In this document: piece after piece, positions 2,762 to 16,892 of the stretch | Numbering within the stretch: position 1 is the first letter of the stretch | Layout: each line of letters begins with the position of its first letter | Assembly (NCBI GenBank): GCA_905214345.1 | Contig: CAJMLV010000004.1 | Coordinates: forward strand, 28,168 to 92,167 | DNA: 64,000 nt | Direction of reading: 5' to 3' | Source: an uncultured bacterium | Lineage (GTDB): Bacteria; Bacillota; Clostridia; Oscillospirales; Ruminococcaceae | Notes under the pieces: model-generated | Told to the model about the DNA's origin: nothing | The model's input: the letters and a program-made list of their open reading frames with translations, nothing else | Database searches by the model: none | Program-made: the position numbers and the translations under genes

Positions 2762-3580
2762 TCAGGGCAGATTCAGTTTTTTGGTGATCAGATACTGGGT
2801 CACTGCCCACAGAATAGCATCTGCGGCAGCAAAAAGCAAGAGGATGACACCGGCAATCCCCCAGGCGAATGCCGTTTGGTTCATGGCTGCTTCCAGGAAA
2901 AACCGGGCGAAGCCGTCCTGCACGGACTGGGGAAGATTGGCCACCAGAATAGCCCCCGCAACGAACAGGAACACAAGCGTCATCTGCAAAATAAAGCCCA
3001 GCACAAAATAGGTGGCTATGCTGGCCAGCATCCGCTGCTGAGGCCAGCGGGAGCCGATGGCCATGCACAGGTACAGATACAGGTACGCAGAAATCAGGGA
3101 AAGCACCATCAGCAGAACCAGGAATACCATGTTCATGGTATCCCGCAGGGAAAATTGGACCCAGAACGCCTGGGCTGCCTCCGTTTCACCGGCGGCATTG
3201 GCCATCCACACACAGCCCATGGCAATGAGAATGGAGGCAATGGTGGTGCCGCAGGCGCACAGCAGCTTGGCGGCTATGTGCTGCCAGGGGGTGGCGGGCA
3301 GGCTGAACATCAGGTAACCCTGGTCGCCCAGCAGTTTGTAGAACCGCTGAATGTTCAGAATCACGCAGGCGGCAATGGTAGCAAAGATAAACAGAGCGGT
3401 CAGAACCGTGAAAAAGTTTTCCAGCACAGAAGTGATGGGGATACCGGTTGCCCCGGCAAAGATGTCGTCCAGCCGGGTTATCACCGACGTCAGCAGGGAA
3501 AACACCGCCGTACCGGCCCAGATGGGCACCAGGATACGCCCCACGGCCATACATTCGTATTTCAAAAGTTTGTTCATCAT
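2762..3580 (-). CDS. ABC-2 type transporter permease (YtrC/D-like)
   Basis: Polytopic membrane protein immediately downstream of the ABC ATPase. Start chosen at the MMNKL ATG with RBS GAGGAA. The ORF-track start at 3595 has an RBS too close to the ATG. Confidence 0.65.
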   Translation of the reverse strand: MMNKLLKYECMAVGRILVPIWAGTAVFSLLTSVITRLDDIFAGATGIPITSVLENFFTVLTALFIFATIAACVILNIQRFYKLLGDQGYLMFSLPATPWQHIAAKLLCACGTTIASILIAMGCVWMANAAGETEAAQAFWVQFSLRDTMNMVFLVLLMVLSLISAYLYLYLCMAIGSRWPQQRMLASIATYFVLGFILQMTLVFLFVAGAILVANLPQSVQDGFARFFLEAAMNQTAFAWGIAGVILLLFAAADAILWAVTQYLITKKLNLP

Positions 3581-4726: not shown

Positions 4727-4811
4727 TCGTGCCCGAAAAATGTCAACCCCTTTGCAGAAAACATTTTTTGCGGTATCATAAACAGAAGACCGGATCAAGA
4801 GGGGGATAATC

Positions 4812-5489
4812 ATGCCGCACATTCTGATCATTGAAGATGATACCGACATCAACAACGCCGTGGCCGAATACCTCACGGCCCGCGGATGCCGCTGTACCCA
4901 GGCGTTTTCCGGCACCGAAGGCCGCTTGTACTGGAAGCAGGGCGGGGCAGACCTGATCATTGCAGACCTGATGCTTCCCGGTCTGACCGGGCAGCAGCTT
5001 CTGGCGGGCATCCGGGGCGAAGACCACAGCAGCGTGCCGGTCATTGTACTGTCCGCCCGTACTGCCTTGCAGGACAAAGTGGAACTGCTGGAACTGGGGG
5101 CCGATGACTATCTGACCAAGCCCTTCTCCTTGCAGGAACTCTGGCTGCGGGTGGGGGTGCAGCTTCGCCATGCGGGGGCTGCCGCGGCACAGCCTTCCCA
5201 TATACAATATAAGGACTGGTCCATCGACCCCGAGACCCGTACCCTGACGGTGAAGGGGGGGCCGGTAGCCCTGACCCTGCACGAATACGAGATCGTGGCC
5301 CTGCTGGCGGCCCGCCCCAAAAAGGTGTTTACCCGGCAGGAAATTTACGAATCCGTCTGGCAGGAACAGGCTTTTGTGGAGGACAAGACCATCAACGTGC
5401 ACATCTCCAACATCCGCGCCAAGCTGCGCCCAACCGGTACCGATGACTATATCAAAACGGTGTGGGGCATAGGGTTCCGGCTGGAATGA
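4812..5489 (+). CDS. OmpR-family response regulator (peptide-antibiotic resistance type)
   Basis: Receiver domain (IIEDD...DLMLP...KPF) plus winged-helix C-terminus. Confidence 0.85.
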   Translation: MPHILIIEDDTDINNAVAEYLTARGCRCTQAFSGTEGRLYWKQGGADLIIADLMLPGLTGQQLLAGIRGEDHSSVPVIVLSARTALQDKVELLELGADDYLTKPFSLQELWLRVGVQLRHAGAAAAQPSHIQYKDWSIDPETRTLTVKGGPVALTLHEYEIVALLAARPKKVFTRQEIYESVWQEQAFVEDKTINVHISNIRAKLRPTGTDDYIKTVWGIGFRLE

Positions 5490-11312: not shown

Positions 11313-11960
11313 ATGAAACTGAAACGTGTTTTTGCCCTGGGCGGTGCGCTGGCTTTGCTGTGTACCATGCCTGCATTTGCGGCGGACGAGATCGTCGTCA
11401 ATGAGGATATCTCGGTTTCCGGTGACTATGACTGGACCCGCTTTGCCGATGACAATATCACCCTGAACGTCTACAACTGGGGCCTGTATATCTCCGACGG
11501 CTCGGATGAGAGCGTGGATGTGGTTTCCGCTTTTGAGGAACTCACCGGTATCAAGGTGAATTACACCACCTTCGATTCCAACGAAAGCCTGTACGCCAAG
11601 ATGAAATCCGGCGGCGCCAGCTATGACGTGATCTTCCCCTCCGATTATATGGTGGGCAAGCTCATTGCGGAGGATATGCTCGCTCCCCTGGATTACGACA
11701 ATATCCCCAATATGGCCGCCATCGGCGAGGATTATCTGGGCTGGGAATTTGACCCTGATAACACTTACAGCGTGCCCTATATGTGGGGCACCACCGGCCT
11801 GATCTACAACACCACCATGGTGGACGAAGCACCCACCAGCTGGTCGGCTCTCTGGGATGTGCAGTACACCGGCAATGTGCTTATGTTCAACAACTCCCGG
11901 GATGCCTACGCCATCGCCGCCAAGCGGGCCGGACTTTCCCTGAATCCGCCGTCGGTGTAG
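11313..11960 (+). CDS. potD: PotD-like polyamine-binding protein, N-terminal fragment ending at an in-frame TAG
   Basis: Signal peptide (ALLCTMPAFA) and PotD family core. TAG at 11958-11960 is in frame with the downstream fragment. Confidence 0.6.
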   Translation: MKLKRVFALGGALALLCTMPAFAADEIVVNEDISVSGDYDWTRFADDNITLNVYNWGLYISDGSDESVDVVSAFEELTGIKVNYTTFDSNESLYAKMKSGGASYDVIFPSDYMVGKLIAEDMLAPLDYDNIPNMAAIGEDYLGWEFDPDNTYSVPYMWGTTGLIYNTTMVDEAPTSWSALWDVQYTGNVLMFNNSRDAYAIAAKRAGLSLNPPSV

Positions 11961-11975
11961 GAAGTGGACCTGGTC

Positions 11976-12545
11976 ATGCAGGACCTGCAGGCACAGAAAT
12001 CCGTGGTGCAGGCCTACGTCATGGACGAGATCTTCGACAAGATGGAGGGCGGGGAAGCGGCCCTGGCGCCCTACTATGCCGGTGATGCCCTGACCATGAT
12101 CGATGACAACCCCGACCTGGCCTTTGTCCACCCGGAGGAAGGCGTCAACTTCTTTGTGGACAGCATGTGCATCCCTGCCACCAGCAAGAACAAGGAAGCT
12201 GCCGAAATGTTCATCAATTATATGTGTGAAACTTCGGTGGGCTATGCCAACTGCGACTACATCGGCTATTCCACCCCCATCACGGCAGTGTGGGAACTGC
12301 TGGACGATGACATCAAGTACAGCCCCATCGCATACCCTGACGAAGAGGTCATGTCCAAGGCGGAGGTGTTCGTTACCCTGCCCGACGAGATCAACGCCGA
12401 GATGGACAGCCAGTGGAGCCAGATGAAGAGCTACGACGAGAGCGGCGGCAGCTGGATGGTGGTTATCTTCCTGCTGGGGGCGGTGGCCCTGTCCGGCTTC
12501 AATATCTGGCGCAAGCTGCGCAAAAAGATGCGGGACAATTACTGA
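11976..12545 (+). CDS. potD: PotD-like polyamine-binding protein, C-terminal fragment with a C-terminal TM helix
   Basis: Same frame as 11313..11960. Continues the PotD fold and ends with a hydrophobic anchor (WMVVIFLLGAVALSGFNIW) followed by RKLRKK. Confidence 0.55.
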   Translation: MQDLQAQKSVVQAYVMDEIFDKMEGGEAALAPYYAGDALTMIDDNPDLAFVHPEEGVNFFVDSMCIPATSKNKEAAEMFINYMCETSVGYANCDYIGYSTPITAVWELLDDDIKYSPIAYPDEEVMSKAEVFVTLPDEINAEMDSQWSQMKSYDESGGSWMVVIFLLGAVALSGFNIWRKLRKKMRDNY

Positions 12546-12591: not shown

Positions 12592-12681
12592 TCAAAAAGG
12601 AACCTTTATCCAAAGGGAACTGGCGCGGCAGGGGAACCCGTGCTATAATAAACTGATCGACAAGAAAAGGAGATGCTGCCC

Positions 12682-13434
12682 ATGTCTGCGGACATGACCC
12701 GATATACCGAACCTTTCCAGGTGTACCGCCACGACGGTGACTGCTTCGGCTATGTGCAGCCCGCTTCGGTGCTGCGCTATGCCCAGCAGATCGCGGGGGA
12801 ACACGCCATTGCCCTGGGGATCACCGACGAAGTCTACGCCCGTACCCACACTGCCTATGTGCTGGCCAAACAGGCGCTGCACTTCGAGCGGGTGCCCCGG
12901 GTGGATGAGCACCTGACCCTGATTACCATTCCGGAAGAACTCAAGCGGGCGGTAAACAAGCGTATCACCCGGGTGCTGGATGAATCCGGCAGCGAGGTGG
13001 CCCTGGTGGACAGCCGGTGGGTGCTCATTGACACCGACCGCCGGGTCATTCTGCGCAAGCACCCGGAGGAATTTTCCACCGCCCACTGGTCGCTGGAGGT
13101 GGAGCAGGAACTGCCCATGAAGATGCACAAGGCCCATCTGGAAGATTGCGAGCATGTAGGCACTCACACCGCTACCTACAGTCAGTGCGATATGAACGGC
13201 CACATGAATAATGCCCGGTATGTGGATGTGATCTGTGATGCCCTGCCGACCGAGGAACTGGAATCTTCCTTTGCCCGGGACATCATCATTTACTATCACA
13301 AGGAGGTTCCCCGGAACGGCTCTTTTGAGCTGTATCGCTGCCGGCTGGAAACCGGTGAGTGGTACTTTGCCGGCATTTTGCCGGACGGAAAATCCAGCTT
13401 TGAGGCCTCCATTTCCCTGGAACCCAGGACCTGA
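12682..13434 (+). CDS. Acyl-[acyl-carrier-protein] thioesterase (FatA/FatB-like)
   Basis: Double hotdog acyl-ACP thioesterase family. RBS AAGGAG 10 nt upstream of the MSADM ATG. Confidence 0.75.
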   Translation: MSADMTRYTEPFQVYRHDGDCFGYVQPASVLRYAQQIAGEHAIALGITDEVYARTHTAYVLAKQALHFERVPRVDEHLTLITIPEELKRAVNKRITRVLDESGSEVALVDSRWVLIDTDRRVILRKHPEEFSTAHWSLEVEQELPMKMHKAHLEDCEHVGTHTATYSQCDMNGHMNNARYVDVICDALPTEELESSFARDIIIYYHKEVPRNGSFELYRCRLETGEWYFAGILPDGKSSFEASISLEPRT

Positions 13435-13510
13435 AACCGAACAACGGGGGAGAAGCGGTAAAGAAGTAACAAAGATGCGGAAATAGTTACAAAACTTTAA
13501 CAAATGACCG

Positions 13511-13540
13511 TTGACAAATGGTTGCAAAAGGGTTACAATT
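13511..13540 (+). promoter_or_regulatory. Strong sigma-70 promoter
   Basis: TTGACA, 18-nt spacer, TACAAT. Confidence 0.6.
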
Positions 13541-13546
13541 TACTTG

Positions 13547-13667
13547 CAAGCAAAGCTAAACAAACTTTTTCATGTGTTCTTCTCCTCCTTTCTTTTGGAC
13601 CCCCGCCTTTCCCTCAGGCGGGGGGTTCTTTTTGTCTGCCGCGGACCTTCCGCGGCAATTTTTTTTG
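13547..13667 (+). ncRNA. Candidate small RNA / leader transcript ending in tandem intrinsic terminators
   Basis: No plausible ORF is present. There is a CU-rich tract (TTCTCCTCCTTTC). Two consecutive hairpin plus T-run terminators lie at 13598-13635 and 13638-13667. Confidence 0.3.
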
Positions 13668-13698
13668 CTGGGCAAGCGCAGAACCTATTGCAAAACAC

Positions 13699-13721
13699 TA
13701 TATTATATGATATATAATATA
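13699..13721. promoter_or_regulatory. Putative PadR operator
   Basis: TATATTATAT-gat-ATATAATATA inverted repeat that overlaps a TATAAT -10 hexamer, about 30 nt upstream of the padR start. Confidence 0.5.
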
Positions 13722-13751
13722 TAAAGACATATGATAAGAAGGGAGTATGCC

Positions 13752-14072
13752 ATGACCTTTGTATCCAGCGCGGCCTTGCTGGACGCCGTTGTGCTGGCCG
13801 TGGTCTCCCAGCAGGCGGAAGGCTCCTACGGGTACCGCATCACCCAGCAGATCAAAGAGGTGCTGGATGTGTCGGAATCCTCGCTGTATCCGGTTTTGCG
13901 CCGCCTGCAAAAGGACCAATGCCTGACCGTGCACGACGAAACCGCCAACGGCCGCAACCGCCGCTATTACCGCATCACAGAACTGGGACTTGTCCGCCTG
14001 CAAGGGTATCAAGATGAATGGCGGGCATACACCAAAAAAATCGACACTTTGTTTTGGGGGGAAACGCCATGA
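13752..14072 (+). CDS. PadR family transcriptional regulator
   Basis: 106 aa winged-HTH with the PadR signature (YGYRITQQI...SLYPVLRRLQ). RBS GGGAG. Confidence 0.85.
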   Translation: MTFVSSAALLDAVVLAVVSQQAEGSYGYRITQQIKEVLDVSESSLYPVLRRLQKDQCLTVHDETANGRNRRYYRITELGLVRLQGYQDEWRAYTKKIDTLFWGETP

Positions 14073-15307: not shown

Positions 15308-15323
15308 TACTTGGAAATAAGCA

Positions 15324-15366
15324 AAAAAAGAACCCCCGCTTCCGGCAGGAAGCGGGGGTTCTTGTA
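15324..15366. terminator. Bidirectional terminator
   Basis: GAACCCCCGCTTCC-ggca-GGAAGCGGGGGTTC with an A-run on one side and a T-run on the other. Confidence 0.8.
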
Positions 15367-15383
15367 TCAGAGTATCAAAAGAA

Positions 15384-16892
15384 TCAGTTGTTGGGGCTGT
15401 TCTTCAGGATAACGTCATGGCTGCCGCCTTCCACTATGGAGGTGGAGGACACAACGGTCAGGCGAGCCTTCTGCTGCAGCTCATGGATGGACAGAGCGCC
15501 GCAGTTGCACATGGTGGAACGCACCTTGTACAGGGTGGTCTGTACGCCGTCAGCCAGAGGACCGGCGTAAGGAACGTAGCTGTCCACGCCTTCCTCAAAG
15601 CTCAGCTTCTGGGCGCCGCCCAGGTCGTAGCGCTGCCAGTTGCGGGCGCGGTTGGAGCCTTCGCCCCAGTATTCCTTCACATAGTTGCCGTTGATGCGCA
15701 GGCGGTTCGTGGGGCTTTCGTCAAAGCGGGCGAAGTAACGGCCCAGCATGACGAAGTCGGCGCCCATGGCCAGGGCTAGGGTGATGTGGTAGTCGTGGAC
15801 GATGCCGCCGTCGGAGCAGATGGGGATATAGATGCCAGTCTGCTCATAGTATTCATCGCGGGCCTTGGCAACCTCGATAACTGCGGTAGCCTGGCCGCGG
15901 CCGATGCCCTTGGTCTCGCGGGTGATGCAGATGGAACCGCCGCCGATGCCAATCTTGACGAAGTCGGCGCCGGCCTTGGCCAGGAACAGGAAGCCGTCAC
16001 GGTCCACCACGTTGCCGGCGCCTACCTTCACGCTGTCGCCGTAACGCTCGCGGATCCAGCTGATGGTGCGGGACTGCCATTCGCTGAAGCCCTCGGAAGA
16101 GTCGATGCACAGCACGTCCACACCGGCGTCTACCAGAGCGGGAACGCGCTCTGCGTAGTCGCGGGTGTTGATGCCGGCGCCCACAACGTAGCTCTTGTTC
16201 TGGTCCAGCAGTTCATTGACGTTTTCCTTGTGGCTGTCGTAGTCCTTGCGGAAAACCATATACTGCAGATGGCCTTCTTCATCGATCAGGGGCAGAGAGT
16301 TGATCTTGTTGTCCCAGATGATGTCGTTGCAGTCGTGCAGGCTGGTGGTGGCGGGAGCAGTGACCAGCTTGTCCAGCGGGGTCATGAACTCGGTGACCTT
16401 CAGGTCAGTGGACATGCGGGACAGGCGGTAGTCGCGGGAAGCGACGATGCCCAGCAGCTTGCCGTGGGGAGTGCCGTCCTCGGTGATGGCCACGGTGGAA
16501 TGGCCGGTGCGGGTCTTCAGGTCCAGCACGTCGGCCAGGGTGGCTTCGGGGGGCAGGTTGGAGTCGCTGGTCACAAAGCCCTTCTTGTAGGCCTTGACGC
16601 GGCGGACCATATCGGCTTCCTCTTCAATGGTCTGAGAACCGTAAATGAAGGAAACACCGCCCTGCTTGGCCAGAGCGATGGCCAGCTTTTCGCCGGAGAC
16701 GGACTGCATGATGGCAGAAACCATCGGGATGTTCATTTCCAGGGGGCATTCTTCCTGGCCCTTGCGGTACTTGACCAGCGGGGTGCGCAGGCTCACTGCG
16801 GTGGGCACACATTCGGAAGAAGAATACCCCGGCACCAGCAGGTACTCGCCAAAGGTACGGGACGGCTCAGAAAAATAATACGCCATAAACAT
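15384..16892 (-). CDS. guaB: IMP dehydrogenase
   Basis: TIM barrel with a CBS pair. Catalytic loop [12 protein letters not shown]. Confidence 0.8.

Follow-up and report, generated by a model that had tools for sequence, protein, structure and literature searches.

The question raised by this locus is whether a strong promoter followed closely by intrinsic terminators, in the intergenic region between an acyl-ACP thioesterase gene (12673-13434) and padR (13752-14072), marks an independent small RNA (sRNA) gene, as an earlier note on this DNA had proposed, or belongs to one of its neighbours. The window, i.e., the whole stretch of DNA that was analysed, is 64 kb long, has a G+C content of 59% and contains no rRNA genes. 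The thioesterase gene is the 5′ neighbour of the element; on the other side, padR encodes a PadR regulator and is found with a gene for a HAAS/DUF4097 protein, and the IMP dehydrogenase gene (guaB) lies on the minus strand beyond the padR region. The whole conserved unit (13485-13634, plus strand), as defined by BLAST and alignment against 21 genome loci, is about 150 bp in size and consists of upstream hexamer repeats, a promoter, an RNA of about 87 nt and a first terminator. Judged by its sequence signals and their conservation, it is very probably an independent sRNA gene. The reading preferred here, with moderate confidence, is that this gene specifies a free-standing regulatory RNA that would pair in trans with the Shine-Dalgarno (SD) and AUG regions of mRNAs and repress their translation.

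The promoter is of the sigma-70 type (13511-13539, plus strand), with TTGACA at 13511-13516 and TACAAT at 13534-13539, matching the consensus at 11 of 12 positions. The two boxes are therefore as first described, but the spacer between them is 17 nt and not 18 nt. Seven sites in the window, with both strands counted, match at 11 or more of the 12 positions, where shuffled sequences give an expectation of 0.2. Among 56 distinct promoters, the -35 box does not vary, and little variation is seen in the -10 box and around +1 (TTGCAAGC). Even where the spacer and -10 box have been replaced (L008, L010 and L040), the outcome is again TTGACG-17-TATAAT at the same position.

Upstream of the -35 box is a direct repeat, TTACAA-N5-TAACAA (13487-13503, plus strand), that offers candidate regulator sites and represents the first two of six phased hexamers with the 56-promoter consensus T[TG][AG]CAA, starting on the plus strand at 13487, 13498, 13512, 13522, 13533 and 13545. 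Their spacing is 10-14 bp, mostly 11-12, and the array, which spans about -60 to +5, is conserved across the different forms of the element. The motif TKACAA-N5-TDACAA occurs once in the 64-kb window (0.01 expected), and in L088, a locus of the form termed type b, it is found only at the sRNA promoter (hexamers at L088 6465-6535). The hexamers, which flank and overlap the promoter, are probably the binding array of a regulator. A direct repeat with N5 spacing is the geometry used by OmpR-family regulators, and in type b genomes an OmpR-type response regulator is encoded immediately 5′ of the sRNA gene. That this regulator binds the array is speculative, since the hexamer repeat is absent 5′ of the TraX, response regulator and kinase genes in L088; for the same reason, autoregulation by this two-component system is unsupported. 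The window has a response regulator gene of its own (4812-5480), the product of which is only 37% identical to the type b regulator.

The predicted primary transcript (13546-13633, plus strand; about 87 nt) would start 7 nt past the -10 box, with a 5′ end, GCAAGC, that is conserved across variants, and would have its 3′ end within the U tract of terminator 1. This terminator (13600-13633, plus strand) consists of a G+C stem of 8-9 bp that is capped by the C-rich loop UUUCCCUCA (13608-13616) and followed by a U tract; the hairpin CCCCCGCC-UUUCCCUCA-GGCGGGGG occupies 13600-13624 and is followed by GUUCUUUUU. The loop sequence CCCUCA, part of the C-rich motif UCCCUCA, is nearly invariant, and L008, L018 and L142 have a poor U tract behind the hairpin. 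The basal pair of the stem is C-G in the window form, U-A in types a and b and G-C in L009 and L040, and within the stem of L012 a C-G pair is swapped for U-A; these examples are the reliable part of the covariation in the terminator stem. In a model-based alignment, 98% of the paired cells hold pairs compared to 47-67% with slid partners, but this alignment is fitted to the structure and takes in 12 weak, non-homologous terminator matches, so that covariation counts are inflated at some pairs.

Terminator 2 (13637-13666, plus strand) has a 9-bp stem, a 3-nt loop and U8, with the hairpin UGCCGCGGA-CCU-UCCGCGGCA at 13637-13657 followed by A-U8. The description of two back-to-back terminators is thus accurate for the window, but the second is kept only in the closest relatives (L001-L005 and L007) and is outside the family core. 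Its stem shows compensatory changes, from GCCGCGG/CCGCGGC to GCCGCAG/CUGCGGC or GCCGUGG/CCACGGU. Its likeliest role is that of a backup, shielding padR from the strong promoter, and the predicted product of read-through to this point would be about 121 nt. The sequence from 13546 to 13667 has a predicted folding energy of -41.3 kcal/mol (z = -4.7), driven by both terminator hairpins, with the CU-rich stretch largely unpaired and only a weak 3-bp helix at the 5′ end in the window variant. Longer variants have a 5′ hairpin with differing stems (AAGCUA/UAGCUU, AAGUUA/UAACUU and GCAAC/GUUGC) but always a CCCC loop of the ACCCCAAG type, and a form with two stem-loops is present in type b, L143 and L079.

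Between the promoter and the terminator is an invariant block of 26 nt, UUUUUCAUGUGUUCUUCUCCUCCUUU (13566-13591, plus strand), composed of U5-CAUGUGUUCUUCUCCUCCUUU, or T5-CATGTGTTCTTCTCCTCCTTT as DNA. In the 5′ to 3′ direction it reads U5, CAU, GUGUUCUU, CUCCUCC and UUU, placing an anti-AUG CAU (13571-13573) and an anti-SD CUCCUCC (13582-13588) on either side of an 8-nt spacer. The anti-SD-like, CU-rich motif recognised earlier, UUCUCCUCCUUUC at 13580-13592, is present as stated, but the seed is longer than was claimed and includes the CAU 8 nt upstream. The reverse complement of the block, AAAGGAGGAGAAGAACACAUGAAAAA, is an idealised translation initiation region, and the start site complementary to the seed is GGAGGAG-N8-AUG with the spacer AAGAACAC. 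CUCCUCC continues into CCUCCUUUCU, the sequence with which Firmicute 16S rRNA ends as its 3′ tail.

Alignment of 27 distinct variants shows no change in the 26-nt block, and it is identical in 37 distinct variants, save for the divergent L021 and two contigs with error-like changes (L066 and L141). The exact 23-mer UUUUUCAUGUGUUCUUCUCCUCC is found in 19 loci and has no second copy in the window. The CU-rich core stays unpaired in the folds predicted for six variants, and in the longer variants the CAUGUG part of the seed is predicted to be pulled into a small hairpin of 5 bp. Invariance over 26 nt exceeds the need of a generic anti-SD seed; it may stem from pairing with several targets, from a protein partner or from competition for SD sequences in general. 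The divergent L021 (about 4797-4996) is a natural split-seed variant, in which a 17-nt insertion parts the anti-AUG module, UUUUUCAUGUGUUCU, from the anti-SD module, CUCCUCCUCCU; its 3′ part has been reshaped and forms a hairpin with CCCCC in the loop.

The distribution of the element was examined by a search with the thioesterase protein, using one genome per species. This gave 24 loci, labelled nearly all as Gemmiger, Subdoligranulum or 'Candidatus Cibiobacter qucibialis'. The unit is present in 21 of the 24; the others are L011 and L023, which end short of the region, and the distantly related L024. With the compensatory changes in the terminator stem and 5′ hairpin, the proposed check for conservation with covariation has come out in favour of the element. 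Nucleotide identity over the unit is 67-81% where that of the thioesterase coding sequence is 63-65%; the amino-acid identity of the thioesterase drops to 48-58%, and no alignment can be made of the intergenic flanks. About 116 of at least 120 metagenome contigs that match the complementary 20-mer do so through the sRNA gene itself, and these are mostly from the human gut.

Three main forms can be distinguished: the window form, with a short 5′ region; type a, which is 'Cibiobacter'/G. qucibialis-like and accounts for about 40 contigs among the matches listed; and type b, with about 60 contigs among the matches listed and neighbouring proteins that are named Gemmiger formicilis in NCBI and UniRef. 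Further forms include longer ones (L014-L017, L070 and L079) and a single divergent one (L021). The sRNA gene is conserved across the whole of Gemmiger, taken broadly so as to cover the species that bear the labels Subdoligranulum and 'Cibiobacter qucibialis', and is single-copy in every locus seen. A covariance model run over the window with filters off found the element alone (91.5 bits), the rest being ordinary terminators of 26.8 bits or less, so no paralogues were found there. The best of these is the terminator of guaB (15322-15389, minus strand; kept in L001, L002 and L004), which has the form AACCCCCGCUUCC-UGCC-GGAAGCGGGGGUU followed by U7, with a CCCCCGC...GCGGGGG stem, and resembles terminator 1. 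It was rejected as a paralogue as it has no promoter, no invariant CU-rich block and no conserved loop.

According to the proposed mechanism, the near-consensus, housekeeping-type promoter would drive synthesis of the RNA, the hexamers would probably bind a regulator, and the strong intrinsic terminator would end the transcript. The unpaired anti-AUG and anti-SD stretch would then pair in trans with the start region of one or more mRNAs and shut out the 30S subunit, repressing translation and possibly triggering decay as well. Trans pairing at mRNA start regions with a block of initiation is considered the likeliest mechanism, at somewhat better than an even chance, because the layout matches that of the streptococcal csRNAs, and the extra C-rich loops recall RoxS/RsaE.

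Prediction of targets from the seed, as suggested by the earlier note, did not lead to a specific mRNA. A sliding duplex scan of the window, and a ranking of 93 putative start regions in it, gave potD as the best duplex (-28.3 kcal/mol, about 2.5 standard deviations from the mean), but the potD starts of relatives give only generic, G-rich SD pairing, and it was rejected as a specific target. The potD-like gene of the window (spermidine/putrescine-binding; 11313-12545, plus strand) is itself unusual in having an in-frame TAG at 11958-11960 that divides it into two ORFs without a change of frame. The alignment with relatives such as L001 runs through this position at 97% amino-acid identity, and the TAG could mark a pseudogene, be a nonsense mutation particular to the strain, or result from an error in sequencing. 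A scan for complementarity anchored on start codons over all loci found nothing conserved, within a target search that covered about 1 Mb of mostly syntenic sequence. In the metagenome scan, no Gemmiger-like contig among the matches listed carries the exact 20-nt complement outside the sRNA gene, so any target would pair imperfectly.

Four matches to the 20-mer that are not the sRNA gene are present among the matches listed, all in unrelated contexts (L060, L110, L096 and L121). In L060 and L110, from an organism of about 47% G+C, the 20-mer is carried by rpsE, the gene for ribosomal protein S5. The L096 match is on a contig of 38% G+C. In L121, a phage-like contig of 54% G+C, GAAGGAGGAGAAGAACACATGAAAAAG (about 3320-3370, minus strand) starts an ORF of 11 codons that is followed by a terminator. 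The seed-like start sites of L121, L060 and L110 are probably coincidences of strong start sites. An 18-mer, GGAGGAGAAGAACACATG, is the start site of nine phage genes, about seven of them independent, on viral contigs (L025-L034); three composition-matched control 18-mers gave 4, 0 and 4 matches, a weak excess for the 18-mer that is based on small numbers.

The alternative that survives best, although it is unlikely, accepts a real sRNA but supposes that it mainly binds or titrates a protein, such as a CU-binding protein or an RNase, or competes generally for SD sequences as a mimic of the 16S 3′ tail. Such a role would suit the identity of CCUCCUUUCU with the Firmicute 16S tail, an invariance over 26 nt and a conserved terminator loop that together exceed what a short seed needs, and the failure to find a specific, conserved or perfectly complementary target in the window, the relatives or the metagenome matches listed. 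That failure, however, relates to a search of only limited and mostly syntenic sequence. A CAU at a fixed 8 nt from the anti-SD, together with a conserved spacer, fits pairing with start regions better, and analogues with such a layout pair with mRNAs (PMC3091779). Distinctly less probable is that the RNA, expressed at a high level across the genus, mimics the 16S 3′ tail with an anti-AUG added, and competes with ribosomes for the whole class of strong GGAGGAG-N8-AUG starts, possibly those of incoming phage genes too. Its level would then be set by a regulator acting on the TTACAA-like hexamers, for which the OmpR-type system upstream of the gene in G. formicilis-type genomes would be a candidate.

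Other explanations deny that there is an independent gene, and bear on the relation of the element to its neighbours. The broad order potD, thioesterase, element is conserved, but the adjoining gene varies. The gene 3′ of the element is padR in the window form, guaB in L018, L021 and L142, and ftsK in type b, while in type a the element is followed by convergent genes on the minus strand. In type b, genes for a TraX-family membrane protein, an OmpR-type response regulator and a histidine kinase sit between the thioesterase gene and the element (L088 3584-6473), and in L018 and L070 the element is on the opposite strand to the thioesterase gene. The two loci L142 and L018 differ in a telling manner: only the sRNA unit of 154 bp is inverted (L018 4858-5011 versus L142 459-612; 89% identity), with the thioesterase and guaB flanks remaining collinear. 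As the inverted segments reach from the TTACAA repeat ahead of the promoter to where terminator 1 ends, the inversion delimits a functional unit, which is equivalent to 13485-13634 of the window. The varying neighbours and the lone inversion together rule out both a leader of padR and a 3′ UTR of the thioesterase gene, and leave an element that is neither 5′ leader nor 3′ UTR and that has, on one strand, its own conserved promoter and its own conserved terminator, as is expected of an independent, trans-acting sRNA. The original proposal of an independent gene is thereby upheld: promoter, seed and terminator 1 are conserved as a unit, the stems covary, the unit inverts alone, and the genes 3′ of it differ.

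It follows that a cis-acting leader or attenuator, in which read-through would reach the padR and HAAS/DUF4097 operon, and which the earlier note had kept as an alternative, is now very improbable. Its appeal came from the window and its closest relatives, where padR starts about 90-120 nt 3′ of the element on the same strand, and from L008, where an inverted block carries padR along with the element. Linkage and orientation are not constant, however, since many homologues (L013, L018-L021, L142 and types a and b) are without padR 3′ of the element, and some of these are followed by convergent genes; in addition, two strong terminators stand in the way, and no alternative antiterminator pairing is evident in the predicted folds. 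The claim that padR has its own promoter also finds support, as a promoter-like site is found 3′ of the terminators, beside an AT-rich palindrome. This palindrome, TATATTATATGATATATAATATATA (13689-13735), is flanked by a TTGCAA on one side and the ribosome binding site of padR on the other, and the region is a probable padR promoter and PadR operator.

Coding potential offers no better explanation. No conserved ORF was found on either strand when close relatives were compared, as the frame or length shifts, and the earlier statement that no ORF with a ribosome binding site intervenes remains valid: the ATG on the plus strand has no SD and its frames diverge after 7-8 codons, and the minus-strand ORF in the window is only 5 codons long. 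The minus strand does have a perfect SD and ATG, AAAGGAGGAGAAGAACACATGAAAAAG, and it could be imagined that this starts a mini-ORF for a leader peptide or small toxin, with the plus-strand RNA acting as a cis-antisense in the manner of a type I toxin-antitoxin system. The reverse complement of the invariant block would make an ideal ribosome binding site with ATG, and there is a weak match to the ylbH leader on that strand (23.9 bits compared to a gathering score of 50). Even so, this explanation is hardly credible: the ORF varies between 2 and 39 codons with only MK shared, its frame differs between the window (MKKFV*, 5 codons) and the closest relative L001 (MKKFVLALLASKL*), and neither a promoter-like site nor a U tract after the hairpins is found on the minus strand, the conserved promoter and U tracts being specific to the plus strand. 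A type I toxin-antitoxin system was also rejected in its own right, as there is no conserved small hydrophobic ORF opposite the RNA, and the minus-strand ORF often has just 2-5 codons. Equally implausible is the absence of any gene, with the hairpins as terminators of the thioesterase gene and the promoter match either fortuitous or merely an upstream promoter of padR, for although nearly all loci have the element 3′ of the thioesterase gene, and the window shows no other terminator after that gene, the promoter and seed are better conserved than the coding gene, the element lies on the opposite strand to it in L018 and L070, and type b has three genes in between.

The reading of the element as a trans-acting sRNA does not change any concept, as this would be an ordinary kind of regulator, but it concerns a group, Gemmiger (including G. 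formicilis and 'Cibiobacter'/G. qucibialis), that is among the most abundant Clostridia of the human gut and has been little studied. The element is a well-defined and testable sRNA gene, with a covariance model, an exact seed and natural variants such as the split seed of L021 and the promoter-swapped loci, and if confirmed it would provide an entry point to post-transcriptional control in the Oscillospiraceae. Nothing relevant on sRNAs of Gemmiger, Subdoligranulum or Faecalibacterium was found in the literature searched. At gathering thresholds, Rfam identifies only two tRNAs in the whole window. A comparison with Rfam 15 (cmscan, 4227 families; E <= 10 for the window and E <= 1 for four variants) gave no streptococcal sRNA and no RsaE/RoxS, only terminator-driven matches below threshold, among them anti-hemB (36.5 bits versus 49.5), ncS54 and the minus-strand ylbH leader. 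The element would be a new RNA family, but a known kind of regulator.

Two groups of known RNAs invite comparison. RoxS/RsaE of the Bacillales and the UCCC-motif Rsa RNAs of Staphylococcus use C-rich motifs to pair with G-rich SD sequences, show extreme conservation across their clades, and, in the case of RoxS/RsaE, are controlled by an OmpR-family response regulator, ResD/SrrA. The Gemmiger element shares the extreme conservation and has several C-rich motifs as well, namely the UCCCUCA of the terminator loop, the ACCCCAAG that longer variants present in their 5′ hairpin loop, and the CU-rich block. Control by an OmpR-family regulator acting at the hexamer repeats would be a possible parallel. 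It differs in that its main seed is a long, CU-rich anti-SD and anti-AUG rather than short CCCC boxes, and in having no match to RoxS/RsaE by covariance model.

The second group is the streptococcal csRNAs (CcnA-E), which are cia-dependent RNAs of about 90-150 nt with very strong promoters, and carry an anti-SD and anti-AUG in an unpaired region between stem-loops; a block of ribosome access and translation initiation has been proposed or shown for them (PMC3091779). Their promoters have a CiaR box, NTTAAG-N5-TTTAAG, that lies 10 bp 5′ of the -10 box and replaces the -35 (PMC3091779). The differences from these RNAs are considerable. The Gemmiger repeat, T[TG]ACAA-N5-T[TAG]ACAA, is not a CiaR box, lies about 30 bp 5′ of the -10 box and leaves a canonical TTGACA -35 in place. 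There is no similarity in sequence or by covariance model, the element is single-copy per locus where pneumococcus has five csRNAs, the window variant lacks the 5′ stem-loop that the longer variants possess, and the hosts are Clostridia (Oscillospiraceae), a different phylum-level lineage from Streptococcus. Nevertheless, both have CAU-N8-CUCCUCC with an unpaired CU-rich core, a terminator stem-loop, and a direct hexamer repeat with N5 spacing in the upstream promoter, and the Gemmiger element, if confirmed, would be a second, independently evolved instance of the anti-SD and anti-AUG design beside that of the streptococcal csRNAs.
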